A stretch of DNA of 56,492 bases, taken from positions 1 through 56,492 of IMG/VR virus record IMGVR_UViG_3300023284_000467; one strand, written 5' to 3'. The notes beneath the pieces were generated by a model, which was not told where the DNA came from, did not search any database, and saw only the letters and a program-made list of their open reading frames with translations. The stretch's first letter is position 1. Every line of letters starts with the position of its first letter. A program made the position numbers and the translations under genes. This document shows positions 1 to 23,338 of the stretch, one piece after another. This stretch comes from a virus (Duplodnaviria > Caudoviricetes).

Positions 1-133
1 ATCCATCTGAATCAATCCGTGATAACCACTGAATATCTCCCCATTGTCAGACATATCATCGATCAACCTCCGTAAATTCAACTCGCTCATCGGTCCCGGC
101 CAAGGTCCACCTATTGTCAAACGTGCCCAAAAC

Positions 134-580
134 CTATCGGACATTGTTCCTCCTGGACCAGTTTCTTGACTGGACGTTGTGACATGCCCGACATTGACGA
201 AATCCAGCTTCGGTGATAATCAAATTATTGCCATCATACCGATGACCCTGTGGGCAATGGGTTTTACGATGGTTCTTCCCACTCCACCCATCCCCACGAT
301 GCAGATTCTCTGTCAAACTAACAATTTCCAGATGCTCCGGATTGACACACAGCCGTACCTTACACAGATGGTCGATCGTGAGCCCTTTCGGAATCTCTGC
401 GACATTCAATTCGTACGAGAACCGATGCGCTAGAATGGTCATATGCTGATGCGGAAAGAAATGGCCGTATCCAGTATTTTTATCAATCGTTCCGGTCCAC
501 ATCCAGCAGTTATCCATTTTTCGCACTCTGTTCCAGAACGACGTCACCACATATTCAAACGATGAGAAGGGTCTTGGCAT
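134..580 (-). CDS. HNH homing endonuclease with C-terminal Zn-binding domain
   Basis: CWMWTG, AHRFSY, IDHLCKVRLCVNPEHLE, then KTHCPQGH...CRACH; paralog of 3373..3843. Confidence 0.9.
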   Translation of the reverse strand: MPRPFSSFEYVVTSFWNRVRKMDNCWMWTGTIDKNTGYGHFFPHQHMTILAHRFSYELNVAEIPKGLTIDHLCKVRLCVNPEHLEIVSLTENLHRGDGWSGKNHRKTHCPQGHRYDGNNLIITEAGFRQCRACHNVQSRNWSRRNNVR

Positions 581-1226
581 CGAAGACTATCTCCCTCCTT
601 ATTTCACCATCCTTGAGGAACTTAGCGACTGCCCTAGCAACGAACGCCCCAACGAAGAACGACGTATATATAACTGCCCTCGCAGTGCACGGGAGTTCAA
701 CCGCTTCCTCGTCCGAATACAGCGTGGTCTCGTAAAACGTCAGATCATCGGGATCGCATGGCCGGATGCTGTACAGACGTATGAACTCTCCACCCATACG
801 ACCATCAATCAGCAGTTGCACCTGCGGCTTATACCTCACACTCTCGAATATTTTCTTCCGGCCCTCCATGTTGTCGATGGCAGACACCACGATGCCTCTC
901 GGAACATCTCCGTTCCACTTCCAATTCATCGGATGCACCTTAGCCTCTGAAAACTGCTCTACCATGTTCTGAAATGCATCTACTTTCTGACGGCCAACCG
1001 AATCCATCGGGTAGATTTGATTTGGCAAATTATGTGTCTCTACCCTGTCATCATCGATAACAGTGATTTTCTGAATCCCCAGCTTGCCCAGCGCCAATCC
1101 AACCGGCGATCCAATGCCACCAGCACCCACAATCGTCACCGGACACATCTTTTCCATCGGATTAAAGATATCAGTCTGACGCGAATACAAATCCTCTCGC
1201 TTCCAATCATGCTTCTCCTCCATCAT
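555..1226 (-). CDS. ThiF/E1-like Ubl-activating adenylyltransferase
   Basis: YSRQ, IVGAGGIGS nucleotide-binding loop, DDDRVETHNLPNQ, KVDA, AIDN, IDGRMG; candidate catalytic Cys in ELPCT. Confidence 0.92.
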   Translation of the reverse strand: MMEEKHDWKREDLYSRQTDIFNPMEKMCPVTIVGAGGIGSPVGLALGKLGIQKITVIDDDRVETHNLPNQIYPMDSVGRQKVDAFQNMVEQFSEAKVHPMNWKWNGDVPRGIVVSAIDNMEGRKKIFESVRYKPQVQLLIDGRMGGEFIRLYSIRPCDPDDLTFYETTLYSDEEAVELPCTARAVIYTSFFVGAFVARAVAKFLKDGEIRREIVFDAKTLLIV

Positions 1227-2080
1227 TTTCCCCCCTTTGAAGCCATACCCAGATAACGTCGTAACCAGGACGGTTCCTTGCTAACTTCATCCTCGTCCTT
1301 GGACTCCAGTCGCTTCGTCTCAGTCGTCGCGGCCGTTTCATCCGTTTCATCGAAATACTTTTTCTGGATTCTCTCTCTCTCAACCATGTCATCCCACTCT
1401 GCAGTAGTGATGGTCTTTTTCGGCTTCAAATAATCAGGCAACTGAATCGGCTCCTCACCAGGAAACAGTGCGGCCTGTCCTTGGTTTGTTGCCTCATCGA
1501 TCCGATCACCAACATAATCCCTGTACAGATCACTACCTTTTGTCGGTGCAAATGTGGAGAAGACAGAGCGTCTCCCAAACCGCTCACTAACTTTTTCAGC
1601 AACCTCCTTTCGCAACTCATCTACGAAAGGGTCATCGGCATCCTCCACGACCTCCAGCGTGAGACTATCAATCGTCAAACGAAACGGCTTAAAAACATCC
1701 AACCGCATCCTGTAATTCCCTTCCTTGTTCACTACGATAGACACATACCAGGGCGCTGTCAGACCAAACTTGTCACACGTTCCATGGTCTGTCCCGCTCC
1801 AATACGCTTTCATGTTGGCGTGACTGTGCCACCATAATTTCAGCTCAGACGGATCTTTCTTTTCATCCATCATCTGCATGATCAACTTGGCTACCGAGCT
1901 CTCATCCAACTCGGTATGTGTCCCGCTTACGTCCTGCTCGAACAGCAAAATATCGTGGATTGTGAACTCTGACTTCCCATTCGTCCTAACTATCCCAAGT
2001 CCACCGATCTCACCGCTCACTAACTTTGGGTACGTGAACAGCTTCTTAAACGCGACTCTCGTGATCTTAATCGGTTCCAT
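1223..2080 (-). CDS. JAB/MPN metallo-isopeptidase with acidic C-terminal tail
   Basis: EIGGLG plus WWHSHANMKAYWSGTD (E...HxH...SxxD); start moved to MEPIK (2080, or 2086) after a GGGGG SD. Confidence 0.88.
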   Translation of the reverse strand: MEPIKITRVAFKKLFTYPKLVSGEIGGLGIVRTNGKSEFTIHDILLFEQDVSGTHTELDESSVAKLIMQMMDEKKDPSELKLWWHSHANMKAYWSGTDHGTCDKFGLTAPWYVSIVVNKEGNYRMRLDVFKPFRLTIDSLTLEVVEDADDPFVDELRKEVAEKVSERFGRRSVFSTFAPTKGSDLYRDYVGDRIDEATNQGQAALFPGEEPIQLPDYLKPKKTITTAEWDDMVERERIQKKYFDETDETAATTETKRLESKDEDEVSKEPSWLRRYLGMASKGGK

Positions 2081-3380
2081 CAGCATCCCCCTTCTTAATT
2101 TTATCATCCTTCCATAGCGGTATATGCTCCGCGCCCCACATATCATCCGGATTGTACGTCTGTAGATACGCCAACACGGTCTGCAACACAGCCCCAAACT
2201 CATAGTTACTAATCATCTTGATCACGCCACTTTGGATATTCCCCCAACAGGGCGTGTTCATTTTAACGTGCGGATGATCGATCGTCTCATACCCTCTCTT
2301 CTTTGCATTAGTCATGTTCCTGATCGCCACTTTACTATCTAACCCGATCTGAATCTCGAACGATCCAACCTTCCATTTCTGATCGATCAGCAACTCCGTC
2401 GTCAACGCCTTGATCCCGGCTGGATCAACAGCCAGACCAACTATCTCTTGCATCTCACAGATCTTATCGAACTCGCGTCTCGCCTTCGTATCAAAATCAC
2501 CGTTACGACTCGCCAGTCCACCGATCTGCAACTCCAAACTATCAATTTCACGAATCGCTTCAGTCAAACTCTTTGTGAGGTTGTCTCTCTCTATGACCAA
2601 TCCTTTCAGATCATTCTCAGCTCGTTTCATATCGCCCTGCGACCGGCTTTTCACCAACTGTACATACTGCTCTCTATAACGTTGTAGCCTGTGCCTCTTC
2701 TGCGACTCGAACTGCTCCTCCCACTTCTGTTCATTCAATGCCAGCGGCAGCGCTCGGTCAAAAATCCTGAGCAACACTGAAAACGACCAGAGGTTCTGTC
2801 GCTGCGTTACGGGAACAAGCAAAGCAATCAGATTAGGCATAACCTCCGCAATCCCGATTCCTTTATCATCAAACACGATGGCACCAGCACCAGCGGGACT
2901 AATCACATTTGAATGCGCTCCCATCGGATAGCGGGCTATATCAGCCGTCTGCCCATCACCAACATCAAAACTCAACGCATCAATGTGGCCACCCTGGTTG
3001 CTTCCAACGAGATTCCCATACGGGATCACTGTCACTCTGCCTTTCGCAGCCTCCGATCGCTGCGGTGACATATGACGTTGGACGTAGAACCACAGGTTAC
3101 AACGCTCCCCAAACGACTCCAGGAATTCGATCAGTGAGCTATTTGAAGTCCGAGGACCAAAATCACGATCAACTTCTACTCTCTGTGCCAACGCCCCTTT
3201 TTCCCTCTCAGCTTCAGGCGCAGCCACAGCAGCATCCAACATCTTCAACACTTCCTCCACCAAATGCTGATCACTCATCGGATAGCTAATCGCCGTACCA
3301 GCCCTGATAAACATGATCCGCCTTCGGCTTAGCTCACTGTCGAACCTGGGATCTAACTCGATTTGTCGCCAATCAGCCAT
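2067..3380 (-). CDS. Coiled-coil protein with C-terminal prokaryotic E2 (UBC-like) domain
   Basis: DHPHVKMNTPCWGN resembles the E2 HPH/N...C motif; central coiled coil; start MADWRQ overlaps the HNH stop. Confidence 0.72.
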   Translation of the reverse strand: MADWRQIELDPRFDSELSRRRIMFIRAGTAISYPMSDQHLVEEVLKMLDAAVAAPEAEREKGALAQRVEVDRDFGPRTSNSSLIEFLESFGERCNLWFYVQRHMSPQRSEAAKGRVTVIPYGNLVGSNQGGHIDALSFDVGDGQTADIARYPMGAHSNVISPAGAGAIVFDDKGIGIAEVMPNLIALLVPVTQRQNLWSFSVLLRIFDRALPLALNEQKWEEQFESQKRHRLQRYREQYVQLVKSRSQGDMKRAENDLKGLVIERDNLTKSLTEAIREIDSLELQIGGLASRNGDFDTKARREFDKICEMQEIVGLAVDPAGIKALTTELLIDQKWKVGSFEIQIGLDSKVAIRNMTNAKKRGYETIDHPHVKMNTPCWGNIQSGVIKMISNYEFGAVLQTVLAYLQTYNPDDMWGAEHIPLWKDDKIKKGDADGTD

Positions 3381-3843
3381 TGATTTGCTTCTTCCTCTGT
3401 TTTCTCTCTCGGTCACGGCGGGCATAACAGACTTTGCAGCGTCGATGCATATGGTCGTCTTTATCTTTATGCAGATACAGGTTCTCACCAGACAACGGGT
3501 GACCCCATATGCACTGGGTCTTGGCAACGTTGATGGCTGCATTTGTTTCAGCCCGCATCAAATTTTCCCTCGGCGTGACAACTTCCATGTGATCGGGCTT
3601 GACGCATCTTCGGACTTTACACAGATGATCAATTTGCCGACCAGCCGGTATTTCACCCCTGAACAAACGATATGAGGAGGTATGGGCATGACAACTATGA
3701 CCTTCGTACCAAAAATCCCCGTATCCATTCGGTGCGATGAATCCGGTCCACAGCCAACAGCCGTTGCGAAATTCGATGAACCGGAAGAACCGTTCATAGA
3801 CATTTTCTACAACCATCCTTCCGGTTATCTGATCCCTCTTCAT
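3373..3843 (-). CDS. HNH homing endonuclease inserted in the Ubl operon
   Basis: CWLWTG, IDHLCKVRRCVKPDHME, KTQCIWGH...CKVC. Confidence 0.88.
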   Translation of the reverse strand: MKRDQITGRMVVENVYERFFRFIEFRNGCWLWTGFIAPNGYGDFWYEGHSCHAHTSSYRLFRGEIPAGRQIDHLCKVRRCVKPDHMEVVTPRENLMRAETNAAINVAKTQCIWGHPLSGENLYLHKDKDDHMHRRCKVCYARRDRERKQRKKQING

Positions 3844-4142
3844 CGAATTCCGCCGCGTACTTTTGGCAGGGCAACCAGCGTATCGCCATCCTGCACAGGG
3901 TCTTGCAGGTTAGCGGGCTGACCATTTTTCCGAACCTCCAAACCTTGCGACACGTTAGCTCTCGTTAGAACCTCCTGGACGGTCGCACCTTCCACAACCG
4001 CAACCTCTGTCGGAGTCGCCCCTAACTCAGCAACCCTGACAAACAGTTGACGCCCGACAGCTTCCGTTTCTTCAACGGGAGTAACGTCGATTGGCTCCTC
4101 CTCATTTACTGCCACTGGGTCTCTATGCTCATCCCTTTCCAT
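3840..4142 (-). CDS. Ubiquitin-like (ThiS/MoaD beta-grasp) protein with acidic N-terminal extension
   Basis: GATVQEVL...VRKNG...VQDGDTLVALPKVRGG-IR; AGGAGG SD. Confidence 0.85.
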   Translation of the reverse strand: MERDEHRDPVAVNEEEPIDVTPVEETEAVGRQLFVRVAELGATPTEVAVVEGATVQEVLTRANVSQGLEVRKNGQPANLQDPVQDGDTLVALPKVRGGIR

Positions 4143-4153
4143 AAAACCTCCTT

Positions 4154-4384
4154 TCAGGCTTTTTCTTTCGAGATGACTCTCTCAACACTCCAACCATTCA
4201 GACACAACTTACCAATCTGGGCATAAAACTTCGTCAGGGCTGGCCCTAGATTCTTGTACTTCCCAATTCGCTCGGTCCCTGATCGAATTTCGAACGCCAC
4301 CAAATCTCCTCGGTCTTGTTCAGAGTTAAGACTAACATCAGTCTTCTTACCTCCGTTTCGCATTGCGACCTTAAACATTTCCAT
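4154..4384 (-). CDS. Hypothetical protein
   Basis: 76-aa ORF overlapping the clamp-like gene. Confidence 0.65.
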   Translation of the reverse strand: MEMFKVAMRNGGKKTDVSLNSEQDRGDLVAFEIRSGTERIGKYKNLGPALTKFYAQIGKLCLNGWSVERVISKEKA

Positions 4385-5828
4385 CTTTCACCTTCTTCTG
4401 CGGCAACTGATATACCGCTGTTTTGTCATATGAGCTAAGTCTATTTGTCCTTAGCTTTCCTGTCCTCCTCCATCTTCCGTCTAGCAACTCGAGCTTGATC
4501 ATATCCAGGTCCAGCGCAACCCACCAAACTAAGAATCTCTCCGCTCCTTTTTCAATAACATCACCGGAAATCAGAGACTTTGCACTAACAGCATTTCCAG
4601 TCTCTCTCTGGACAGCAATGCTCTCACTTCCAATCAGTGCAAACTCTTTCATCTCCGATACCGCTCTATCATCGAACACCGTCATTGCTGCTGGCATTAG
4701 ATACTGCTTTCGATCAACTCCACCCTCATTGGATCGAAACAAGATCGGACCCAGATCATTAGCGAATCGCACCGTGACAGCATTCATCCCAGCGAAATAC
4801 TTTGACGCGCATAGCATGTAATAAATCGGAAGCCCGAACGACCCTCGACCTTCAATCGGATCAGCCACCCTCATCTTCTTCGTCTGTGGCTGAAAATTCT
4901 TCCCCTCCATCATCCCAGCCAATGCCCAAACTCCTTCTTCTTCCAATGTGAACCGGAGCCATCTAGCACCATCTGACAATGCCATATCTACCAACTTCTC
5001 CAACCGCTGCCCGTTGATCATGAACTCCAAGCCACCTAGCTGCATCAACCTCCAATCGGGAATTTCGACCACCGCTTCCTGACTTGTAAACACACCGTAT
5101 GCTCCTCCACATTCAATCTGTATGGTCCGATCATTTACGAGATTCACTTTCAAATCATCTCCGAACGCCGCAATCACTTTCATCAACCAAATAGCTCCAG
5201 CATGAATTCTGGCTCTAACTAATGCTCCATCTGCTCTTGGACCGACGAGCCCGAGCTTGTGAATCATCAACTGGTGACTATCACAGGCGCAAACTTCATC
5301 TCGCAACGTGTCCAGGTAAAAGAAGTTGTGCGGTCTATCCGACGCTCTCAGCATCATCGACGCCATCTCCGTAAGAGACACCATGAGTTCTCGCTTATCT
5401 CCAACCACAGTCCCCGCATCCACCAGCGATATCATCGCTGTCCCAACCTGACGCTCAATCAGCACCGTCAGTGCCAGATCATACTGTCTGCCAGACTGTC
5501 GTACCCAACCAGTTGCAGCACTGACACCACCACTGCTCTGCAAATGCATCGTACAATTCGCGTCAGTAAGGAGTCGAGCTACTTTGTCAGCGATCTCTGC
5601 ATTGACCGCGTACACATGTCTATCAGCCGGAGCAGTCGGTTCAGAATGCAACAAGAACCAGAACGCGCCTAAGTCTCGTTTCGACTGAACATCTACAGCA
5701 GCAGTGACCTGGTTTTGACGAAATACGATCGACCGTTCATTAGATCCCGCCGTTTCGCCCACGCGACTGAAGGCGCGACCAACCTTAAAAACATTTTTCA
5801 ATTCAGTTCCTGATACAGTGAATTCCAT
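4371..5828 (-). CDS. Divergent beta sliding clamp-like protein with about 100-aa C-terminal extension
   Basis: MEFTVSGTEL start, ACDSHQL (cf. ATDGHRL), IPDWR (cf. YPDY), FGLPIYY...VRFANDLGPILF...QYLMP at about residue 380. Confidence 0.6.
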   Translation of the reverse strand: MEFTVSGTELKNVFKVGRAFSRVGETAGSNERSIVFRQNQVTAAVDVQSKRDLGAFWFLLHSEPTAPADRHVYAVNAEIADKVARLLTDANCTMHLQSSGGVSAATGWVRQSGRQYDLALTVLIERQVGTAMISLVDAGTVVGDKRELMVSLTEMASMMLRASDRPHNFFYLDTLRDEVCACDSHQLMIHKLGLVGPRADGALVRARIHAGAIWLMKVIAAFGDDLKVNLVNDRTIQIECGGAYGVFTSQEAVVEIPDWRLMQLGGLEFMINGQRLEKLVDMALSDGARWLRFTLEEEGVWALAGMMEGKNFQPQTKKMRVADPIEGRGSFGLPIYYMLCASKYFAGMNAVTVRFANDLGPILFRSNEGGVDRKQYLMPAAMTVFDDRAVSEMKEFALIGSESIAVQRETGNAVSAKSLISGDVIEKGAERFLVWWVALDLDMIKLELLDGRWRRTGKLRTNRLSSYDKTAVYQLPQKKVKDGNV

Positions 5829-5847
5829 TTCACGACCTTATAATCGA

Positions 5848-5885
5848 ATCCTAACATATACACCAACGTTGTCAAGTATTTTCGA
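5848..5885 (-). promoter_or_regulatory. Early sigma70-type promoter, copy 1
   Basis: TCGAAAATAC-TTGACA-16 nt-TAGGAT with extended TG. Confidence 0.8.
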
Positions 5886-5900
5886 CTAGAAATCCACACA

Positions 5901-6473
5901 CTATGCAATTTCTTCACTTTTCTGAAACAGACTCAACTCATCTTCTGCCGACACGCCTGTCTTCCAGCCATCAGTGTCCTTCCATCTCAAACGATACTGT
6001 CGATCACCCAGATACTCGTCCACGAACACTGTCTTGTTGCGCTTCTTGTCGAACACGATGTCGCTCTCAGCGAACAGCCCCTTCTCCTTCGTACGTACTA
6101 CGTGAGCGCGAAGCTGATTCATGAGTTCAGTAACTTCAAAAGCCGTAAGCTCTACCTCCACATCACACCACCCACAGAACTCCTTCAAGTTCGTCTCTAA
6201 CTCATCGAAATCGACCATATCTCCAGCTGTCAGCGACGGAATCTGACTCCACAAACTATCGACCATCTCCTCATCTTCGATCTCGTAGCCCTCATCCTTA
6301 CCTTCTCGCTCCTTATCAAGATCATCCATCGCGTCCTGGACGAGCCTCTCCATCGCCATGTGAATAGCGAGTGCATCATCGTGCAAATCTTTGTAACGTT
6401 TCAGTACATCGGTACACACGATTATAAGTTGACCCGCATCTCTGAACATTGCCTTTCTACTCTTTACTCCCAT
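5901..6473 (-). CDS. Hypothetical acidic protein
   Basis: Start MGVKSRK after AGGAGG SD. Confidence 0.7.
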   Translation of the reverse strand: MGVKSRKAMFRDAGQLIIVCTDVLKRYKDLHDDALAIHMAMERLVQDAMDDLDKEREGKDEGYEIEDEEMVDSLWSQIPSLTAGDMVDFDELETNLKEFCGWCDVEVELTAFEVTELMNQLRAHVVRTKEKGLFAESDIVFDKKRNKTVFVDEYLGDRQYRLRWKDTDGWKTGVSAEDELSLFQKSEEIA

Positions 6474-6481
6474 AATACCTC

Positions 6482-6712
6482 CTATCCGTAAGCGAATTTT
6501 CCCTTCGGCTGTACAGGCTTGATGCTTACTATCGATATCACACGCTTCATTGTCGCGGCAGAACCGCAGTCCATACAAATCTTCTTCTCTTCGGCTTTCC
6601 AGCCAGCTCTATGTCCTGGATTCCGCTCAGTCCAAACCCGCGTCTTGTTGCACCTGTAATAGGTCTTCCCGCACACATCGCAATAACGATTAAAGATTTT
6701 CTTACGCACCAT
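6482..6712 (-). CDS. Small Zn-ribbon protein
   Basis: CDVC...CMDC; GGAGG SD. Confidence 0.65.
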   Translation of the reverse strand: MVRKKIFNRYCDVCGKTYYRCNKTRVWTERNPGHRAGWKAEEKKICMDCGSAATMKRVISIVSIKPVQPKGKFAYG

Positions 6713-7055
6713 TTGACCTCCTACCTCTAGGTCTGCCTATACGCCTGCGTGTTCGCTTTAGATCACCATGCACTCTACGTTCATGCATCGATCTTCCTGC
6801 AGTGTTTCTAAACGGTCCCGCTCCACACCGCTTACGCTTGCAGTAGAACGCCTTATCACCTGGTCTAAGCGCACTACGGCGAGTCACCGGATCGAGCTCA
6901 GCCTTACCATCTTCCTTGGAACCACTCTTTGCTCGCGTCGATCTCTCAGCTTGCAGGACATGCTCTTGATCACCGACCTTGAACTCTATGGGCATCCCAC
7001 GACGCAAATTGAGCAGATCAATCTTGCTCAGCAGTAATAGACTTATTGGTCTCAT
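6702..7055 (-). CDS. Basic protein with C2H2-like zinc finger
   Basis: YCKRKRCGAGPFRNTAGRSMHERRVH and Arg-rich tail. Confidence 0.65.
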   Translation of the reverse strand: MRPISLLLLSKIDLLNLRRGMPIEFKVGDQEHVLQAERSTRAKSGSKEDGKAELDPVTRRSALRPGDKAFYCKRKRCGAGPFRNTAGRSMHERRVHGDLKRTRRRIGRPRGRRSNGA

Positions 7056-7860
7056 CTTCCTCTCCTTTTCCGACTAAATCTGGATACTCTGCTCTCAACT
7101 TCTTCATGTACGAGCCTTCTTTGTCGAGATACACCTTGCGAAAATCATAGAACAAACGCCAGTCAGTCCTGCCGAGCTCTTTCCCTCGGGCGGTGTGAGC
7201 ATCGACAGCATACTCAGGCACGGGTGGTCTCCATCCATGCTTTACTCTCAACTGTGTCAACACCTTGAGATCATCAACCTCTGTACTCTTCTTAGCACGT
7301 GAGAGCACCATGACGGCATGCACCAGCGGATCAGGATCGACAAAGAATCGTGACATCCACTTGCAAAAATCCCACCCCTGCGCCAACGATATTGCCGTCC
7401 GAACTGCCTCTGGATCTGCGAACCCAACATCCTCTGACGCCTGAATCACTACCCGCTTCCAGGTGTACCCTGGTGCAATCGTCGATGCCTCCATAGCCCA
7501 GAACACCGCCATTTCCTCATTCCCTAGACGGACTTCCTTGTGCATCGCCGAAATGACTTCATCCAGTCTGTACCCATTCTTCGTCACCGCTCTCGGCTTC
7601 TTGGCTCTGTGCTGTGCCTCAGTGATCACCACTCCTTCTTTATGTCGCTCCTTGTAGCTGAGCGACATCATCACTGCCTTGATGTGTTTACAAAACGTCC
7701 CTCGCTGACCTGCATAGCAATCACAGGTCAACCCACCCTGCTCACCATAATCAATCACCGTGTAGTCCATATCCTTGCGCGACTGAGACGGGACGACATA
7801 CTTATTAGGATCGTCGGTCGTCTCAACCTGGATCGTCTCTATCGGCTTTGCTTGTGCCAT
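7018..7860 (-). CDS. SWIM zinc finger fused to RarA/MgsA C-terminal-like domain (no ATPase)
   Basis: TCDC...FCKHIKAV; ISAMHKEVR, WKRVVIQASEDVGFADP, AKKS, DAHTARGK. Confidence 0.75.
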   Translation of the reverse strand: MAQAKPIETIQVETTDDPNKYVVPSQSRKDMDYTVIDYGEQGGLTCDCYAGQRGTFCKHIKAVMMSLSYKERHKEGVVITEAQHRAKKPRAVTKNGYRLDEVISAMHKEVRLGNEEMAVFWAMEASTIAPGYTWKRVVIQASEDVGFADPEAVRTAISLAQGWDFCKWMSRFFVDPDPLVHAVMVLSRAKKSTEVDDLKVLTQLRVKHGWRPPVPEYAVDAHTARGKELGRTDWRLFYDFRKVYLDKEGSYMKKLRAEYPDLVGKGEEDETNKSITAEQD

Positions 7861-7909
7861 AATTCCTCCTAACTACAAATATCAGCTCGAAAATTTCTCC
7901 ATTGAAAGA

Positions 7910-7947
7910 GGTATAACAGATACAACATTGTTGTCAAGGATTTTCGA
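7910..7947 (-). promoter_or_regulatory. Early sigma70-type promoter, copy 2
   Basis: TCGAAAATCC-TTGACA-16 nt-TATACC with extended TG. Confidence 0.7.
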
Positions 7948-7973
7948 TGGTATTTTATCCTTCCCAAATAGGC

Positions 7974-8171
7974 TCACCATGGCGTTACAGTCATCGGATG
8001 CTTCTCAGGAACCTGCACTCGGAGTTCAGGTGGTCCAACATGAAAAAGTAAGAGCATGTATGAGTTTCTCGACCTTCGAGCTGATCTTAGCAGCCACATT
8101 CGGTCATCCCGTGTGATTATGGAGGCCGGAGATTTCTCATTCAACCCAATGAACTTTTCTCGATAGCTCAT
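7974..8171 (-). CDS. Small hypothetical protein (MSYREKF..., 65 aa)
   Basis: TAATG coupling to the ligase stop; GGAGG SD. Confidence 0.5.
   Translation of the reverse strand: MSYREKFIGLNEKSPASIITRDDRMWLLRSARRSRNSYMLLLFHVGPPELRVQVPEKHPMTVTPW
8011..8031. repeat. Palindrome ACCTGCACTC-G-GAGTTCAGGT, copy 1 of 3
   Basis: Read directly; related copies at 12793 and 13771. Confidence 0.7.
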
Positions 8172-9115
8172 TACCTCTGATCCTCCAGAATGCAGTCTGT
8201 CTGCAGCTTGTCGTCTCTCCACTGTATGAAGCTCGCATGTCTCAATGCGCCTCCTGGCATCACGCCGTAGCACTTCACTTCCGCAACTTTTCCAACATGC
8301 TGCTCCAGATCAACTTTGTTGCCCCACTTCACTCCCTGGCCTACAGTCTTGACCTTCTCCTTTTTCGGATCGTAGTACCCATAGGTCAGTGCAGCCTCAC
8401 AGCCTTTGAACTCCTTGTTACCCGTCAAATAGCTCGGCTTGTCAGTGATCCCTGTCACTACGACGTCTACTGTCATCGTCACCTTCACCTTGAGCCAGTC
8501 ATGCGATCTGGTCGAGGTATAAGGAGCATCCGTCGCTTTGAGCATGATCCCTTCTCCGCCTTTATCCTCACACCAGAAATCCCACATCGCTTGCTTGTCT
8601 TTCCAGGCTGGAATCAACGTTACTCTCGGGTGGAAGTGGAGGCCAGCAAAGATTCGCTCTAACGCTGCCCGCCTCACCGCCCATGAATGACACCGCATAT
8701 TCCCGCCCTCTTCCATCAACAGATCAAAGACGACCACTAACTTTTCAGCCCCAGCACTCGAGCGACTATTCTTGACAGTCTTTCCACCCGTATTGGTTCC
8801 ATCTCCGGAAAATACTTCGCAGTCAAAGATCCCGCTCTCAAGCGGCCACTTCACATCAGCCAACCACTCGTGCCCTTTGTCATCAGAAATATCACGACCC
8901 GTCCTGCTGTAGCAGCCGACAGTCTTACCGCCCTTGACGTGCAACTGGAGACGACAGCCATCCAGCTTCGGCTCCGCGACAAAGCGGTCATCGGTCATTA
9001 CCTGATCGTCTTCTGGCAGGTGCGCTGCCATCGGCTTGATGAATTCCATCGGCTCCCTCCTTAACCAATTCTGATTCGCTTCAACAGCATCTGGATCTTC
9101 GGTGATCACCTTCAC
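8171..9115 (-). CDS. lig: ATP-dependent DNA ligase
   Basis: EPKLDG (motif I), FDCEV, VFDLL, EGIMLK, WLKVK, OB fold ending LRHASFIQWRDDK; second start at 9049. Confidence 0.92.
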   Translation of the reverse strand: MKVITEDPDAVEANQNWLRREPMEFIKPMAAHLPEDDQVMTDDRFVAEPKLDGCRLQLHVKGGKTVGCYSRTGRDISDDKGHEWLADVKWPLESGIFDCEVFSGDGTNTGGKTVKNSRSSAGAEKLVVVFDLLMEEGGNMRCHSWAVRRAALERIFAGLHFHPRVTLIPAWKDKQAMWDFWCEDKGGEGIMLKATDAPYTSTRSHDWLKVKVTMTVDVVVTGITDKPSYLTGNKEFKGCEAALTYGYYDPKKEKVKTVGQGVKWGNKVDLEQHVGKVAEVKCYGVMPGGALRHASFIQWRDDKLQTDCILEDQR

Positions 9116-9223
9116 CTACTTCTCCCTAGTCACTCCACGACACAGGTCGCAGATCATCCTTCGGATTTCGTCGAGAAACATCAGTCTCCGTCCACATCGC
9201 TTGCACAGGATGTAATTAGCCAT
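9116..9223 (-). CDS. 35-aa Zn-ribbon peptide, missing from the ORF track
   Basis: Hand translation MANYILCKRCGRRLMFLDEIRRMICDLCRGVTREK; its TAG abuts the ligase GTG. Confidence 0.6.
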   Translation of the reverse strand: MANYILCKRCGRRLMFLDEIRRMICDLCRGVTREK

Positions 9224-9665
9224 CTATCTGCTCCTTCTTGGATGCCCTTTTCGATAATACCGCTTCACGCAAGTCGCGAGCTCTGGCATCTTGGGTGTAA
9301 TGCAGGAACGGCCCCTTGCCCATTCGATCCGACGTAAAAGAAATACCTTTTGAGGCGAGGTATTGAGTCTCTGCACGAGATAGGTCCGTTGGCCCCTTGA
9401 CTGTCTCTGTTATTGGTTTCCCCTTTGCCTTCGCGATTAGCTCGTCTAATTTCTCCTGCTCCTTAAGTGTCATTGACAACACCTCCTGATGCTGATCTGA
9501 ATAGCATTCACAATCGGGATTCAAGCAGCTGTAGCACTCGGTACAGTTTCGATGCCATTTCAACTTGATGTGAGTATAAGGTGTCAGCTTCTGATCCTTG
9601 TGAAGACCTGCACAACCGTCGTTGCTCTTAATGAATTCGTGTTGGTTTTGTTTTTTTGTTTCCAT
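9216..9665 (-). CDS. Cys-rich early protein, possibly leaderless
   Basis: ATG 6 nt after the -10 box; alternative SD-led start MTLKEQ at 9473. Confidence 0.6.
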   Translation of the reverse strand: METKKQNQHEFIKSNDGCAGLHKDQKLTPYTHIKLKWHRNCTECYSCLNPDCECYSDQHQEVLSMTLKEQEKLDELIAKAKGKPITETVKGPTDLSRAETQYLASKGISFTSDRMGKGPFLHYTQDARARDLREAVLSKRASKKEQIDG

Positions 9666-9671
9666 ATAATA

Positions 9672-9710
9672 AACGTAACACATTTACAAAGTGTTGTCAA
9701 GTATTTTCGA
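9672..9710 (-). promoter_or_regulatory. Early sigma70-type promoter, copy 3
   Basis: TCGAAAATAC-TTGACA-17 nt-TACGTT with extended TG; GAAAT repeats upstream. Confidence 0.8.
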
Positions 9711-9735
9711 TCGCAAATTACATTTCATTTGCATT

Positions 9736-10044
9736 TCATTTCTTCGACAAGTGCTGTCTCGGCGTCTCCATGTGCGAGTTCGGCATCCCTGCATCCAACT
9801 GAGAATCCGTCAATAGGTTCTTCCCAACATCTAGCCAATACCTCAGCTCCTCCTTGGCCTCGGCAAGTTCCACCAATTCCAACCGCGCCAATCTAGCCTC
9901 CAATATGGAAATCGTGTTGCGCTGTTTCTCCTCATTGGCTTCCGAAGCAGTGAGTTGGGATTCAAGGTCAATCAACTTTGCCCTGCCAGGATGACAGCAA
10001 GAGGCGCTGTGCCAAATCTGACAGAAATCACAATGGCCACTCAT
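9736..10044 (-). CDS. Hypothetical protein, Cys/His N-terminus plus coiled coil
   Basis: MSGHCDFCQIWHSASCCHP; ATGA coupling. Confidence 0.6.
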   Translation of the reverse strand: MSGHCDFCQIWHSASCCHPGRAKLIDLESQLTASEANEEKQRNTISILEARLARLELVELAEAKEELRYWLDVGKNLLTDSQLDAGMPNSHMETPRQHLSKK

Positions 10045-10358
10045 CGCTTGCCCCTCACTGCCTGAAGTACCGCCTCGTAGGAACCTTGAACATCTATGAA
10101 GCACTCAGGCTCACCAAACCCGACGGTCGTCTCATTCTCAACTAGCTCAACACCATCTGGGGTTCGTTTGGACCCGGTCATAGATACTGGTCGTACGCAG
10201 CGAATGGAGTCACGTCTAATAGCAACTGGACGACCTCTGCTATCACGCCACTCTAACATTTCACAACCAGCGACCAATTCCGTGAGCTTCCTTATGAGCT
10301 CAGGCACCTGGCCCTCGAAGAACATCGCTCCCATACGGGTTTCATGAAATTCTGCCAT
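10041..10358 (-). CDS. Hypothetical protein
   Basis: GGAGGG SD; tightly packed with neighbours. Confidence 0.7.
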   Translation of the reverse strand: MAEFHETRMGAMFFEGQVPELIRKLTELVAGCEMLEWRDSRGRPVAIRRDSIRCVRPVSMTGSKRTPDGVELVENETTVGFGEPECFIDVQGSYEAVLQAVRGKR

Positions 10359-10369
10359 AATCCCTCCCC

Positions 10370-10540
10370 TTACAGGTGCCCGATCAGAAATCGAATCCGA
10401 TCTTCCAAGTACTCCGCTTCATCAGCCTTCATCACCTTGTTCCTCACCATGTCATCCACCTGACCTCTAATCCTAAGCTGAAGCACCTTAGCTTCATCGA
10501 CCGCTACACTCTCCAACTGGTTTCTTCTCACTTCGTCCAT
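10370..10540 (-). CDS. Small hypothetical protein
   Basis: TAAGGAGG SD before MDEVRR. Confidence 0.6.
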   Translation of the reverse strand: MDEVRRNQLESVAVDEAKVLQLRIRGQVDDMVRNKVMKADEAEYLEDRIRFLIGHL

Positions 10541-10550
10541 TTGATCCTCC

Positions 10551-10793
10551 TTACCGCACTCGCATTGCACCCCTGACATCGTGTTCTGCATCAGCTTCTG
10601 GAAAACTCAACTTGTCCAACCACCGTAATTCCCTTTCGCTAAGCCTCGTATCCAACACCTTCTTTCTCCTTCTCAGGAAGGCGAGGGTCGCAACGGGGCT
10701 TGACGAAAAAGACTTGCCTCCGTCCCATGAGTAACACTCCAACGTCGTCACAGTCACCTTTCCATTCACAACAACTCTTACTTGCTTGATCAT
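10551..10793 (-). CDS. Hypothetical protein
   Basis: ATGA coupling. Confidence 0.6.
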   Translation of the reverse strand: MIKQVRVVVNGKVTVTTLECYSWDGGKSFSSSPVATLAFLRRRKKVLDTRLSERELRWLDKLSFPEADAEHDVRGAMRVR

Positions 10794-11119
10794 CTATGTC
10801 TCCTGACCTTCTTCGTTACGAACTTTGTCTTTCCTGCAGCCACTCTCTCCTTTAATCGAGCAACATCCACCAAGTAGTATGCCTTGGTCTTTCGCCCGAA
10901 CACCGGCACCATCTTTCCACTCTCCATGGCACGGTACTTATCTGCCGTCACCTTCAACTTGATCTGGCAGTTCATCTTCCTGTACCAGTAAAGCCCCTTC
11001 TCCGCTCTCCGGTTGTTAGCGATTCTTAGTAGGATCGGATTCTTCGGCTCTGTCATCAACGCCTGCTCTGCTGCGACCAACTCGTTGTCGATCTCTTCGA
11101 TTGGTCTTAATTTCTGCAT
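10790..11119 (-). CDS. Basic hypothetical protein
   Basis: AAGGAG SD. Confidence 0.65.
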   Translation of the reverse strand: MQKLRPIEEIDNELVAAEQALMTEPKNPILLRIANNRRAEKGLYWYRKMNCQIKLKVTADKYRAMESGKMVPVFGRKTKAYYLVDVARLKERVAAGKTKFVTKKVRRHR

Positions 11120-11134
11120 CTACCGCTCCTTCTC

Positions 11135-11698
11135 CTACGCCCTTAGCAACCAATTCTGTGGAACGAAGTAACAACGACCATCATCTATATTCACTCTCGC
11201 TCTGCATCCAGAATACGCTGAGATGACTATCCCTTTCTGATGACCGAACCGAGGCGAGCTCCACATCACCTGATCTCCACGACGGAATCCGCCACTCACT
11301 GTCGTCACGTTCTTGATCGACCTGTGATGGATCTTGTCAGTCAGTCCCTCTTTCTTCGCATAGTTCCACAGGGTCCAGTACTCCTTGTCCCACTCATACG
11401 ATCTCACTTCGCCTCTCCACGCATGGATAACTTCCTTGAGACACCTGTAAAACGGCTGCTCATGGCGGAAGCTCTTATATCTCAACCAACAGAGAACATG
11501 CGCAAACTCATGCAGTGTTGCGCCCTCAATCCCATGCCAGTCATTCACACTAATCGTCAGCCACAACACTCCATTCGTGCGGTGGCACCAACTTGTGCGA
11601 CCCGTCCCTCTTTGGACTCTAGGAACATCGATCTTGAACTCAGCCGACAGGAGTTCGACCATCTTGTGAACCTCAAGCATTCCTAATGGTGTTGCCAT
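11135..11698 (-). CDS. HExxH zinc metalloprotease (SprT-like) with C-terminal SH3/KOW-like domain
   Basis: LHEFAHVL...HEQPF; GFRRGDQVMW...GIVI; start MATPLG after GGAGG. Confidence 0.7.
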   Translation of the reverse strand: MATPLGMLEVHKMVELLSAEFKIDVPRVQRGTGRTSWCHRTNGVLWLTISVNDWHGIEGATLHEFAHVLCWLRYKSFRHEQPFYRCLKEVIHAWRGEVRSYEWDKEYWTLWNYAKKEGLTDKIHHRSIKNVTTVSGGFRRGDQVMWSSPRFGHQKGIVISAYSGCRARVNIDDGRCYFVPQNWLLRA

Positions 11699-11717
11699 CA
11701 CGCCTCCCTCTTGCATT

Positions 11718-12125
11718 TCATTTGGCCTTCCGAATCGACAGTCCCTCATCTCGCATGCACCGTAACTCGTAGCCTTTCTGGACGCACGCTGGGCAGATAT
11801 AGTAAGGAGCATCGATCCCGTTCTCCACCCGCTTTGCTTCATGACCATCAAACAACTTTCCGCACTTGTCACAGAGCTCCAGGGGAAAAGAAGCTGAAGA
11901 ACCCACAATGCACCCCACTCTCTTGAATGCCACGCAGGAGCTCGCGCATGCACTTACTCGTACGTGGTGAGTCTGCCGGTGGTGGGACTGGCTACCCTGT
12001 TTTATGCCTTTTTGCCTCTGTGTGGCCTCCTGGCTGCGGGTCGGTCCCGCTTTAGATACGCCAGGCACACGGCTTCCACCGCTTGTTAGGCTACTCGTTT
12101 TAAGGTGCATTCTGGGTTCTTTCAT
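11718..12125 (-). CDS. Hypothetical protein with C-terminal Zn ribbon
   Basis: CDKC...CPAC; AGGAGG upstream. Confidence 0.55.
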   Translation of the reverse strand: MKEPRMHLKTSSLTSGGSRVPGVSKAGPTRSQEATQRQKGIKQGSQSHHRQTHHVRVSACASSCVAFKRVGCIVGSSASFPLELCDKCGKLFDGHEAKRVENGIDAPYYICPACVQKGYELRCMRDEGLSIRKAK

Positions 12126-15128: not shown

Positions 15129-16190
15129 TCACCTCAAATAAGGAATAATCCCCGAACCACCGATCATATCACGGATCGCCGTTGCGGCGGCCAAGCTTCT
15201 CTCGGCGTATTTAACCGTTGCTATGTCCAGATACAGGTAAGCCAGGACCAATGAGCCTCTGGTATAGACATTGCACGAAATTCTGTTACAGGTGACGGCA
15301 TCTTTTTCTTCTGTATCTGTACCCCATCCGCCGTCGTCGTCGTTTTCATCATGGAAAATATCGAGGGTAGCACTGTCCGACCACAAAAGATGTAGGGTTG
15401 CCCCATCTACGCTCAGGCAGATTATGGTGTTCCCGTTTATTGCGCTGGTTCCGGCAGCGGTGACCCCGGCGTCTGTGGTGATTGTTGGGTCTGCCCCGCT
15501 GTCGAATTTCGCTATAGAAATTCTCGCGTTGAAATCTCCGTATGGCACACGGACTTTTGTCGCCCCCGAAACATAGGACACCCCGTGATTGTGGGGTAAC
15601 TTTAATCCGAACGCGCCAGTCGCATCAATGACTTGGTCCGCCGTGTCCAAAACATTTGTGGAACTAAGGGAACGGTGGAGGAAATCGTCAAGCGTATCAT
15701 TGAAATAAAAAAAGTGCATTCGATCCGATAGGCCCAAGACGATTACGATTCCCGAATAATCGTTAGTAGATGCCGCTCCGTCCACCTGAACATTTGTTGT
15801 CCAACCAGCCCCCTCTTCCCTCGCATAAAAGATTGCACCGTCACCTCCATCTTGACCCGCATAGCCGATTATAACATCTCCGTCTGACCTAACAGCAATT
15901 GAACACGCCTCAACGCCAGCAAGAGGTGCATTCGTTACAACCACTTCATTCTTAGTCGTAAACGTATCCGTCCCGGGATCGAAAACATGGTAGCGAACAA
16001 TGCCACCCGCACCTTGGGTGGCGATGTGGATATCCCCACTGTCCTCAAAGCACCACATGGAAACGACAAGCTCACCCGTCAAAGAGAAATCAACGTCCGC
16101 CCAATTTCCATCAACGGCTGGGTCACTAGTCGCCTTCATTGCAACTATGGCAGTAAGACATGGATGCCGCATGATCGTATAAGTAGCCAC
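15129..16190 (-). CDS. Beta-rich (propeller-like) virion protein, paralog 3
   Basis: Shared VAMKA.SDP, HRSLSS, SYVSGATKV, DSGADPT. Confidence 0.75.
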   Translation of the reverse strand: MATYTIMRHPCLTAIVAMKATSDPAVDGNWADVDFSLTGELVVSMWCFEDSGDIHIATQGAGGIVRYHVFDPGTDTFTTKNEVVVTNAPLAGVEACSIAVRSDGDVIIGYAGQDGGDGAIFYAREEGAGWTTNVQVDGAASTNDYSGIVIVLGLSDRMHFFYFNDTLDDFLHRSLSSTNVLDTADQVIDATGAFGLKLPHNHGVSYVSGATKVRVPYGDFNARISIAKFDSGADPTITTDAGVTAAGTSAINGNTIICLSVDGATLHLLWSDSATLDIFHDENDDDGGWGTDTEEKDAVTCNRISCNVYTRGSLVLAYLYLDIATVKYAERSLAAATAIRDMIGGSGIIPYLR

Positions 16191-16192
16191 GA

Positions 16193-17281
16193 TTAAATCT
16201 CGAACGGTCCCACGTAATAGTTTTGGTCCGGAAACTCTACCAGTGAGAGTTTACCAATAGAACCGCCAGCTAGAGGATACTCACAATATTTAGCTGTAGT
16301 CCCGTCTAGAAACAGAAACGCCAGAACCTTCGCCCCCCTCGTATAGACGTTGCAGCTGATACGGTTGATGGTTGCTGCGTCAATTATTTCCTCGTCTGTT
16401 CCCCATCCTGCGTCATCGGCGTTTTCATCGTGAAAAACATCCGTGTCGGTAATATCAGAAAAAAGCAAGTGAATCGTGGTTCCATCAACGGCTAAGCACA
16501 TCACGGGTGTTCCATTGTTAACCTTAACGTCAAGCGCAGAGACTACCGTATCTGTAGTAAGCGTGGGATCAGCTCCGCTGTCTAGCTTCGCGATAGAAAT
16601 TGAGCCGTCAGCATCTACATAAGGAATACGAACCTTTGTTGCTCCTGAGACGTAAGACACTGCCTGCCCGAACGGATGGTTCGTGTTCACAACAATAGTG
16701 GTGTCTATCGCCTGGTCAACAGTGTCCAAAGAATTGCTGGAGCTTAGTGAACGGTGGTATGCCGTAGCCGCTGAACCGCTGTCCTCATTATAAAAGAAGT
16801 GCATCCTGTCCGACACTCCAAGAATAACGACCGCACCAGTAAAATGTTCTGCGCTCCCCCCGTCAACACGTATATTCGTAGTCCAGGTGGTCACTTCACG
16901 GCGAGCATAAAACACGGCGTCGTCATTCGCATCATCTCCAGTATAAAGAATTATTCTGTCCCCGTCTGACCTCTCAGAAATCGAAACTCCGACTCCCTCT
17001 GCAAGATTTGGTTTATTTGTGACCACAAAGTCCGGTGCGAAAAAAAACCGTCCTACCCCAACATCAAATATATGGTTGTAGATTTTTCCGTCCGCATCCA
17101 CTGATGCTATCCTAATATCACCGCCAGTAGTCTCAAAACACCACAAGCTAACAGTGTCTCGACCATTATTCGTAGTATAATCAACCTGACTCCAATTCGC
17201 GTCAACATTAGGATCAGCTGTAGCCTTCATTGCTACAATGAACCTGGACTTATATAGCATTATTGCGTAAGTATCAGCCAT
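16193..17281 (-). CDS. Beta-rich (propeller-like) virion protein, paralog 2
   Basis: Same motifs; ends FPDQNYYVGPFEI. Confidence 0.75.
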   Translation of the reverse strand: MADTYAIMLYKSRFIVAMKATADPNVDANWSQVDYTTNNGRDTVSLWCFETTGGDIRIASVDADGKIYNHIFDVGVGRFFFAPDFVVTNKPNLAEGVGVSISERSDGDRIILYTGDDANDDAVFYARREVTTWTTNIRVDGGSAEHFTGAVVILGVSDRMHFFYNEDSGSAATAYHRSLSSSNSLDTVDQAIDTTIVVNTNHPFGQAVSYVSGATKVRIPYVDADGSISIAKLDSGADPTLTTDTVVSALDVKVNNGTPVMCLAVDGTTIHLLFSDITDTDVFHDENADDAGWGTDEEIIDAATINRISCNVYTRGAKVLAFLFLDGTTAKYCEYPLAGGSIGKLSLVEFPDQNYYVGPFEI

Positions 17282-17283
17282 AA

Positions 17284-19539: not shown

Positions 19540-19546
19540 TTTGCAT

Positions 19547-19864
19547 CTAAGGAACTAGATCTTGGCCGGTAACCCCTGCAACGTCGTCCCAAACTGCAAC
19601 AATTCGGGCTTCTATTACTGAGTCGATTGAGGTAGCGTCTATAGTAACATCAGCCGCAACTGCCAGAGAAAATGGCAAAATCCATTCATGGGGTCGAGTC
19701 AACACTCTTGTCGCTAGATTCCCTCGTCTTGACCATTGAATATCCGTTAGTGAAGTCTTCGCTTCCCCTTGAACATCGGTAGCGACCTTGGCGATAGCGA
19801 TTTTTATCTTGCTCCGAAAATCGCTTGTTTCAGAAAAGTTGAATGATTCCAAGAAAGACGCCAT
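19547..19864 (-). CDS. Hypothetical protein in tail-fibre region
   Basis: AAGGAGA SD. Confidence 0.65.
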   Translation of the reverse strand: MASFLESFNFSETSDFRSKIKIAIAKVATDVQGEAKTSLTDIQWSRRGNLATRVLTRPHEWILPFSLAVAADVTIDATSIDSVIEARIVAVWDDVAGVTGQDLVP

Positions 19865-19875
19865 AATCTCTCCTT

Positions 19876-20439
19876 CTAGCTTTCAATCACGTAGTGACTG
19901 ACCAGAACTCTCAATCTTCCACCTGTTGGAACTTCATTCGTAATTCGCAGGTCTGCATCGTCGGCACCCACACCGACAATACCGGCCCCATTACCCCTTA
20001 CAATTCCAGACCCAGCGGCAATACCAGCATGAGACAGGACAACTCCGTCGACCGTATTACCATCGGTTGGTTCAGTGGGAACAGCAGTGGTACCGAACCC
20101 AATTCGAACTCCGACGTCAACTGAAACTGCATTGTCAATCGTAGCCTCGATCATCGTGACGACGATTTTATTCCCTGTGGCGATGGTAATTATCGGGTCA
20201 TCTGTTTGCGCCGTCGTTGCGACGTATTCCCGCGAAACAACGTTCGGGTGGCCGCCAATGACCCAAGGAATCCCGTGACGGTTTGCATACCAATCAGTTC
20301 TATCATTGGCAGCTACGGCGGTTGGACTTGCACCATGCGCGAGTGCCTTTTGACCAACCTTAACAGGGTTGTCTCCATCGGCGGCATCATGCGCTCTGGT
20401 GCCGTGGGTCTGTTGACCTTGGCCGGTTACATCAGCCAT
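19876..20439 (-). CDS. Fibre-like virion protein
   Basis: NPVKVG...PTAVAAND motif shared with 20445..22052. Confidence 0.65.
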   Translation of the reverse strand: MADVTGQGQQTHGTRAHDAADGDNPVKVGQKALAHGASPTAVAANDRTDWYANRHGIPWVIGGHPNVVSREYVATTAQTDDPIITIATGNKIVVTMIEATIDNAVSVDVGVRIGFGTTAVPTEPTDGNTVDGVVLSHAGIAAGSGIVRGNGAGIVGVGADDADLRITNEVPTGGRLRVLVSHYVIES

Positions 20440-20444
20440 TCAAC

Positions 20445-22052: not shown

Positions 22053-22055
22053 GGT

Positions 22056-23171: not shown

Positions 23172-23184
23172 CTTGTTCCTTCAA

Positions 23185-23337: not shown

Positions 23338-23338
23338 T

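Follow-up and report, generated by a model that had tools for sequence, protein, structure and literature searches.

Do phages encode ubiquitin-like (Ubl) protein conjugation pathways of their own? The question is raised by IMG/VR virus record IMGVR_UViG_3300023284_000467, a linear sequence of 56,492 bp that is ~57% complete and was analysed whole (the window). An earlier note, made from the DNA letters alone, had read overlapping genes near its start as a phage-encoded operon for a Ubl, an E2, a JAB peptidase and an E1. Bacterial Ubl conjugation was recently established as an anti-phage weapon, in the Bil and type II CBASS systems and probably in Bub, and a complete cascade in a phage would show that viruses of bacteria tag proteins too, in parallel with the manipulation of ubiquitin by eukaryotic viruses. 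The analysis confirmed all four genes on the minus strand at 555-4142 and added two HNH endonuclease genes, at 3373-3843 and 134-580, that had been overlooked. The four protein folds are identifiable, their active-site motifs are intact, the genes are linked in other loci, and the operon resides in a phage. We estimate a probability of about 65% that these genes encode a self-contained Ubl conjugation cascade, in one translationally coupled operon within the phage replication module.

A UBC domain in the E2-like protein

The E2-like gene (2067-3380, minus strand) encodes 437 amino acids from an ATG at 3380. The protein consists of an alpha/beta N-terminal region with a confident AlphaFold model (residues 1-198; 2787-3380), two helices (residues 199-292; 2505-2786) and a C-terminal domain (residues 293-437 plus the stop codon; 2067-2504) that was assigned to the UBC fold by profile, model and fold searches. 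It carries HPHVKMNTPCWGN at residues 369-381, with HPH encoded at 2268-2276 and Cys378, the candidate catalytic residue, at 2247-2249. Neither the window protein nor its family is covered by a Pfam, PHROG or PADLOC model. A word-indexed search with the window protein found two close relatives only, and the same kind of search with alignment A2 found 4 proteins, none of them informative. An exhaustive profile search of metagenomes returned 1276 representative proteins of 50%-identity clusters at E <= 1e-3, including 311 at E <= 1e-10. In an alignment of 89 sequences, made up of the window protein and 88 relatives, residues G339, P370, H371, C378 and G380 are invariant. Because these five residues are invariant in 89 sequences and the gene set recurs elsewhere, the operon is more than a chance observation.

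Comparison with solved structures was sensitive to how much of the protein was used. Full-length profiles (A1 and A2) searched against PDB sequences gave mainly coiled-coil noise, with UBE2L3 at E 0.34, and this was resolved by cutting the profile to the C-terminal domain (A4, 23 sequences), which matched 18 UBE2L3 (UbcH7) sequence sets with a best E of 2.9e-4. The A4 alignment puts the family motif HPHv..g.pCl on UBE2L3 HPNID.KGQVCL, with HPH on HPN and Cys on Cys. The Pfam family UQ_con (PF00179) was touched by two of 45 relatives, at E 2.9e-5 and 7.1e-5 (22.9 and 24.1 bits, under the cut-off of 27). AlphaFold modelled the whole E2-like protein with a pLDDT of 88.7 and the UBC domain alone with a pLDDT of 88.2 and a pTM of 0.81. 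When the domain model was submitted to Foldseek, all 45 matches listed were canonical E2s (probability 0.82-1.00, best E 3.1e-3, TM 0.42-0.52), and a Foldseek-independent search (VIA) of 48,161 representative chains listed 50 matches, every one an E2, an RWD domain or a related fold. The best VIA match aligned 119 residues at a root-mean-square deviation of 4.0 with Z 7.3; bacterial Cap2 and CdnG-E2 scored lower, at Z 5.2-5.7. The UBC fold that had been predicted for this region in the earlier note was thus recovered, and the matches listed held no fold outside the UBC/RWD group. Three independent lines agree, namely the profile match, the register of the motif and the single fold family retrieved, and we accept the C-terminal 145 residues as a predicted UBC domain with Cys378 as its candidate active site.

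The remainder of the protein is less widely shared. DSSP analysis of the model placed helices at residues 199-215 and 217-292, the latter a single long helix of coiled-coil type, and coiled-coil chains match residues 231-295. Residues 1-198 have no recognisable fold and gave no usable match in the ESM Atlas; in fold searches with the whole model, the sole row led by the N-terminal region was a weak fucosidase match (Z 5.9). This region is limited to closer relatives and absent from many others, and most profile hits start at about residues 150-230.

The Ubl, JAB and E1 proteins

The Ubl gene (3840-4142, minus strand) encodes a 100-residue beta-grasp protein of ThiS/SAMP2 type with an acidic N-terminal tail of ~30 residues and the C-terminus ...PKVRGGIR, in which the two glycines are residues 97-98 and are followed by Ile-Arg. 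A profile of four Ubl orthologues aligned end to end with the Pyrococcus SAMP2 chain 5lda_B (E 2.3e-8), placing ...KVRGG on the terminal ...VSGG of SAMP2, GG on GG, and ThiS was matched by three of the four orthologues (best E 1.1e-7). As judged from these alignments, the Ubl is a beta-grasp protein of the ThiS/MoaD/SAMP type that ends in Gly-Gly at its predicted activation site. The C-termini of its relatives vary, ending in GG, GG-NN or G-A.

The JAB gene (1223-2086, minus strand) encodes a metallopeptidase of ~287 residues that starts at 2086, or at 2080 if judged by ribosome-site spacing. The protein carries a full JAMM site, E...HxHx7SxxD, with the Glu in GEIGG and the remainder in HSHANMKAYWSGTD at 1787-1828. 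Among solved structures it matches best the Caldiarchaeum Rpn11-like protein (6fjv_A, E 3.8e-4), with the motif aligned, and the JAMM motif was found in 7 of 8 proteins scanned, which are all 7 candidate JAB open reading frames (ORFs). The earlier note had proposed that JAB trims Ile-Arg from the Ubl to expose Gly-Gly. This is plausible, because the Ubl GG aligns with the terminal GG of SAMP2 and the ends of its relatives vary.

The E1 gene (555-1226, minus strand) encodes a minimal enzyme of 223 residues with a single ThiF-type adenylation domain. The protein gave one match to Pfam ThiF (PF00899; residues 30-129, E 4.4e-18, 65.8 bits, above the cut-off of 28.1) and also matches phrog_15670. 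Its relatives in the PDB include MccB, ThiF, Uba4, Uba5 and MoeB, and Cap2 is also among its structural relatives. Motifs GAGGIGS and NLPNQ are present, and in an alignment of the window E1 with two orthologues of 221 and 251 residues, which are single-domain throughout, GAGGIGS, D58 and D118 are invariant in all three sequences. Cys180 (687-689) is the sole cysteine kept in all three, and by eye the E1 proteins of the bacterial locus and of phages cr85_1 and FpV4 described below have a cysteine at the equivalent position. A predicted complex of an E1 dimer with the UBC domain scored 0.31 against a mark of 0.32, with controls at 0.00, and was used as evidence in neither direction. Together, the SAMP2 profile, the UBC fold, the JAMM motif and the 65.8-bit ThiF match bear out the identities that had been assigned to the four parts.

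Linkage and distribution of the gene set

A survey of conserved synteny, which the earlier note had suggested, supports the association of these genes. Local hidden Markov model (HMM) searches identified six E2-holding loci besides the window, five viral (L002, L003, L004, L006 and L032, with L003 and L004 near-identical) and one in a bacterial genome (L029). JAB and E1 genes adjoin the E2 gene in five of the six, and a Ubl gene was found by HMM in four. L005, one of 5 viral loci found, was left out of this count because the HMM failed to confirm it. L002 and L029 repeat the order Ubl-E2-JAB-E1, as does L032 provided that its 78-residue ORF is a Ubl, and the order in L003/L004 is Ubl-E2-E1-JAB. 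In L032 (5232-8774), a 589-residue protein with a UBC domain at residues 104-194 (hhalign probability 95%) is followed by JAB and E1; the 78-residue ORF at the Ubl position ends in KVSSGSK and was missed by the Ubl HMM. L006 holds a lone E2-like gene of 164 residues.

The bacterial copy (L029; G078 contig 3, 1101000-1120999) occupies 8593-11611 in a Bacteroidota genome. Its E2 and E1 genes are each split by a frameshift, and the copy probably represents a prophage or integrated element in decay. This copy adjoins a ligase-like ORF, named by eye from the sequence. In L002, a 152-kb viral contig, a ClpB-like double AAA+ chaperone of 843 residues (9435-11966) lies 0.6 kb downstream of Ubl-E2-JAB-E1, and NrdD/NrdG-like and HAD/PNKP phosphatase genes lie upstream (radical-SAM and HAD were scanned; NrdD was named by eye).

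The E2 family is rare in cellular genomes, with one member among 1203 sampled from three phyla (1/401, 0/401 and 0/401). Cluster look-up of ten E2 relatives returned only the annotation 'hypothetical protein', and one of the ten is assigned to a Parcubacteria metagenome-assembled genome, on a 14-kb contig. No match to positions 1-8000 of the window (megablast) or to the E2 (tblastn) was found in the phage collection. Locus searches of viral contigs with the single E2 and with E1 also returned none, nor did E2 alignment A1 in metagenome contigs or alignment A3 in genome contigs. A back-translated E2 motif pattern gave 0 matches in both viral and metagenome contigs. A looser pattern found 16 loci in genome contigs, about the number expected by chance, and by local HMM 0/16 hold a family member; in viral contigs the looser pattern found 0 loci and the stricter one a single locus, L032.

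The E1 could be traced further. A tblastn search with E1 matched 87 phage records, all at <60% identity, mainly from the Flavobacterium FpV4 group, Bacteroides phages of the phiCrAss001 group and uncultured crAss-like phages, in which the homologue is annotated as thiamine biosynthesis protein ThiF. Two of these phages, crAss-like cr85_1 (L007; NC_055883.1, 1936-5651) and Flavobacterium phage FpV4 (L008; NC_041872.1, 1607-5618), carry four consecutive genes arranged like those of the window, encoding a protein with a Ubl-like N-terminus, a protein with a YMHSH motif, a JAMM peptidase and a ThiF-like E1. By local HMM, the last two are homologues of the window proteins (E1 at 5.2e-31 and 1.2e-34, JAB at 2.7e-8 and 1.3e-12, for cr85_1 and FpV4). 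The first gene encodes 218-289 residues whose Ubl-like N-terminal part has an internal ...KSG or ...KSGG, and the gene that precedes the peptidase carries YMHSH...PCLG or YMHSH...FCIG. When a profile of the crAss members of the latter family was aligned with that of the E2 domain, the motifs fell in register across 95 columns (hhalign probability 26%, E 7.3e-4), which is suggestive of an E2-like protein. The JAB-E1 pair of both phages belongs to the replication module, where it is placed among primase, UDG and exonuclease genes, and the set is annotated as hypothetical, metalloprotease and thiamine biosynthesis proteins. These phages therefore share JAB and E1 homology and the replication-module position with the window, whereas their Ubl is part of a larger protein.

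An operon in a phage replication module

The phage origin asserted in the earlier note was confirmed by the gene content of the record. PHROG matches include a portal, a head protease, a major capsid protein, a tape measure and tail proteins, with the portal, capsid, tape measure and tail genes on the strand of the operon, and Pfam matches include a BppU_N baseplate protein, an Amidase_3 endolysin, an ATP-dependent DNA ligase and an MgsA_C/SWIM protein. From these structural, baseplate and endolysin matches, the record is assigned to a tailed phage of a peptidoglycan-bearing bacterium. The possibility of an archaeal virus was rejected, since an Amidase_3 endolysin in a phage record points to a bacterial host.

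The Ubl operon forms the 3' end of a same-strand array within the replication module, downstream of a gene for a beta sliding clamp-like protein (4371-5828, minus strand, 485 residues). The clamp-like protein was identified by an ESM Atlas structure search, in which residues 1-389 matched clusters carrying DNA_pol3_beta with TM 0.84 by target and 0.66 by query, and it has no Pfam or PHROG match. It is ~95 residues longer than cellular clamps, with the extra part at its C-terminus, and its gene lies two genes upstream of Ubl. The gene between them, a 76-residue ORF (4154-4384, minus strand) with no Pfam or PHROG match, overlaps the end of the clamp gene. An MgsA_C lid domain plus SWIM zinc finger protein (7018-7860, minus strand) and the ATP-dependent DNA ligase (8171-9115, minus strand), both identified by Pfam, together with the clamp mark this region as a replication/repair module. 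The best sigma-70-like site in the first 9.5 kb, TTGACA-16-TAGGAT with TG (5875-5848), is directly upstream of the clamp gene; because the number of such sites equals chance expectation, it is a hint only. Early expression of the pathway, as inferred in the earlier note, would be conjectural.

Neighbouring operon genes overlap by 4 to 20 nt, including 14-20 nt between E2 and JAB and an ATGA between JAB and E1. Purine-rich ribosome sites precede most of the genes, and Ubl has a strong AAGGAGG. A pseudogene remnant was considered and rejected, given the intact reading frames and the presence of both the motifs and ribosome sites.

The two HNH_3 homing endonuclease genes are paralogues (39% identity, E 4e-30), are the sole HNH_3 matches in the record, and both sit within or at the edge of the operon. 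One lies between Ubl and E2 (3373-3843, minus strand; HNH_3 E 4.5e-11, phrog_826 E 1.6e-45), and the other overlaps the E1 stop codon (134-580, minus strand; HNH_3 E 1.4e-9). The gene at 3373-3843 is not part of the conjugation pathway, and L002, L003/L004 and L029 have no ORF between Ubl and E2. Its ATG overlaps the Ubl stop codon (ATT CGA TGA). The Ile-Arg tail of the Ubl may owe its form to HNH insertion, because it is coded right at this junction; short Ubl tails also occur in relatives that have no HNH gene.

A proposed cascade and alternative explanations

These features suggest a cascade whose chemical steps and dimeric E1 are inferred, as is what it would tag, which could be a replisome protein of the phage or a protein of the host. 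JAB would remove the two residues after Gly98 of the Ubl and would probably also reverse conjugates. The ThiF-type E1 would adenylate Gly98, probably in the homodimeric form known from MoeB, ThiF and Uba5, and may hold the Ubl on Cys180, from which it would pass to Cys378 in the UBC domain of the 437-residue E2-like protein. With no E3 encoded, and no RING or HECT family among the window proteins scanned, the E2 would transfer the Ubl directly to a target lysine. As a conjecture, the long helix and the N-terminal region of this protein could select the target, the latter in place of an E3 as the earlier note had suggested.

Several points weigh against this proposal. The chemistry is read from sequences and models, and partner genes could lie in the missing part of the record, since it is only ~57% complete. 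Archaeal Ubls of the SAMP type are not known to need an E2 for conjugation and serve as sulfur carriers too, so the kind of Ubl found here does not in itself demand a route through an E2. In canonical E2s the Asn of HPN is catalytic, and in this family it is invariably replaced by His. The window E2 misses Pfam UQ_con, and its fold matches are of moderate strength (TM 0.42-0.52; Z 7.3, where a Z under 8 may reflect a common arrangement). NLxRQ is a motif of MoeB and ThiF, and the window E1 has Asn in place of its Arg, so full adenylation activity is not assured. Two of the partners fall under their Pfam cut-offs: the Ubl against ThiS (E 5.9e-4, 20.8 bits; cut-off 22.5) and the JAB against Prok-JAB (PF14464; E 5.1e-4, 20.3 bits; cut-off 25).

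One alternative is a sulfur-carrier system, in which E1 adenylates and then thiocarboxylates the Ubl, the sulfur goes to modification of a nucleic acid or metabolite, JAB serves only to mature the carrier and the E2-like protein is a scaffold or persulfide relay. JAB-type maturation of a sulfur carrier is known from CysO/Mec+ and QbsE/QbsD. The ThiS/MoaD/SAMP2 type of the Ubl, the small MoeB/ThiF-like form of the E1 with a conserved Cys at the ThiF/MoeB crossover position, and the database label of thiamine biosynthesis protein ThiF on phage homologues would all fit. Sulfur-carrier systems have no need of a UBC domain, however, and here one with an invariant HPH...C is tightly linked in five of six other loci. 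The enzymes expected around a sulfur carrier were also sought. As the earlier note had stated, ThiG (PF05690), MoaE (PF02391) and cysteine synthase (PALP, PF00291) have 0 matches in the window, while control genomes were matched, and rhodanese, NifS-type desulfurase (Aminotran_5) and PP-loop ATPase (ATP_bind_3) families likewise have 0 matches in the ~57%-complete record. Because the record is incomplete and host enzymes could serve, these absences only weaken the sulfur-carrier explanation, which we regard on balance as decidedly improbable.

Phages commonly carry defence genes, and the same biochemistry could instead serve as defence cargo, a Bil-like anti-phage or superinfection-exclusion system that tags the proteins of competing phages outside the phage's own infection programme. 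The location of the operon speaks against this, as it sits inside the replication module after the clamp, ligase and MgsA_C/SWIM genes, not in a moron-like spot, and the homologous JAB-E1 pairs of cr85_1 and FpV4 also lie in replication modules. The parts list and gene order are nonetheless those of BilA-B-C-D in the available text of PMC11601596, and the characterised bacterial relatives, CBASS Cap2/Cap3 and Bil, are all immune systems according to the available parts of PMC11601596 and 10.1101/2023.09.04.556158. A PADLOC v2 scan matched 0 families for Ubl and E2, gave one weak, unrelated match for JAB (E 0.045), and matched E1 only to the nucleotide-binding part of Cap2 E1-E2 models (residues 29-101, up to E 3.2e-15). 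With the near absence of the E2 family from sampled cellular genomes, and no integrase among the proteins scanned (a subset of 73 ORFs), defence cargo appears unlikely. A counter-defence role, in which JAB strips the Ubl or CD-NTase conjugates of a host Bil or CBASS system while the other three phage proteins compete with the cascade of the host or jam it, is very improbable. A deconjugase alone would suffice for such a role, and the conservation of all four genes, with the E1 and E2 sites intact, speaks for the making of conjugates and not only for their removal. What lends it some credit is that host Bil tags phage tail proteins (available text of 10.1101/2023.09.04.556158) and that the multicopy JAMM peptidases of Borg elements are proposed to act against tagging by the host (available text of PMC12660748).

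Relation to known conjugation systems

The likeness to Bil that the earlier note had drawn held at the level of function, with the same parts in the same order, and failed at the level of E1 architecture. As far as the available text of PMC11601596 describes them, Bil systems also have a Ubl with a C-terminal Gly plus a short tail that can be removed, a Cys-bearing UBC-type E2, a JAB and an E1. They share the order Ubl-E2-JAB-E1 and the lack of an encoded E3, and the Bil E2 is thought to pick targets (available parts of PMC11601596 and 10.1101/2023.09.26.559546). In contrast to the Bil E1 described in the accessible part of PMC11601596, the window E1 is one ThiF domain of 223 residues, and we rejected membership in Bil because of this difference in architecture. 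The window also differs in its SAMP2/ThiS-like Ubl, in an E2 with a 290-residue N-terminal region, a long helix and an HPx motif that is closest to eukaryotic E2s, and in being phage-encoded instead of belonging to a bacterial defence locus.

To our knowledge, archaeal SAMPylation uses no E2, whereas the window set has a UBC-domain gene that is conserved in five of six other loci, as well as a bacterial host. The SAMP/UbaA/HvJAMM1 system otherwise shares with the window a SAMP2-type Ubl ending in GG and a single-domain MoeB-like E1. Its JAMM peptidase both matures and removes the tag (available text of PMC4443979), as we propose for JAB. The ubiquitin systems of Caldiarchaeum and Asgard archaea (E1, E2, RING E3 and Rpn11) resemble the window in their canonical-looking UBC E2 with HPx...Cys and in the Rpn11-like JAB relative 6fjv, and their operon organisation is similar as described in the available parts of PMC5654768 and PMC3082918. 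The window differs from them in having no RING E3 or true ubiquitin, an E1 of about half the size and an E2 fused to a coiled coil. Overall, the E2 and JAB come closest to proteins of eukaryotes and Caldiarchaeum, and the Ubl and E1 resemble those of the archaeal SAMP system.

Type II CBASS, with Cap2 as an E1-E2 fusion and Cap3 as a JAB, shares the E1, E2 and JAB chemistry, and Cap2 is among the structural relatives of both E1 and E2. CBASS has no Ubl, the CD-NTase itself being conjugated (available text of PMC10097602). Among phages, the sole Ubl-plus-JAB pairing found in the literature searched is that of TAPI (Ubl) and TAPK (JAB plus NlpC) in lambda/T1 tail assembly (PMC1779556, available text). 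That pair belongs to a tail-assembly module without E1 or E2, whereas the window set is in a replication module and has both. For Asgard viruses, the available text of 10.1101/2021.07.29.454249 reports ThiF/E1-like genes only. The literature searched, with subscription journals, bioRxiv supplements and very recent papers outside it, holds no report of a phage-encoded Ubl-E2-JAB-E1 set, and none is mentioned in the available parts of PMC1779556, PMC7824862, 10.1101/2023.09.04.556158 and 10.1101/2023.09.26.559546. The operon is a real and probably undescribed phage variant of Ubl conjugation.

A minimal E1 of ~220 residues and an E2 with its own targeting region would be among the smallest E1-E2 cascades, and this E1-E2 set would be a useful comparison for the origin of eukaryotic E2s. 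The cultured crAss-like and Flavobacterium phages, in which the E1 and JAB partners carry a mistaken thiamine biosynthesis annotation, are tractable for experiment. A broader and rather doubtful extension is that the large, near-phage-exclusive family of UBC-type E2s, together with their minimal E1, JAB and SAMP-like tag, constitutes viral Ubl signalling seated in replication modules, with a diverged form in crAss-like gut phages. Such signalling might tag a replisome component, for example the neighbouring clamp, as eukaryotes tag PCNA, or a host protein, and might thereby control replication or disarm the host. If this extension holds, both sides of the phage-bacterium conflict use Ubl conjugation, and phages would have some of the most eukaryote-like E2 domains known beyond eukaryotes and archaea.

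Other features of the record

Nearly every gene lies on the minus strand, with negative GC skew along the whole record. Between the tail genes and the endolysin, at 15129-30599 on the minus strand, lies a run of ORFs of 353, 362, 751, 535, 1294 and 852 residues with no Pfam or PHROG match; the large ORFs in this run presumably encode tail-fibre or baseplate proteins.

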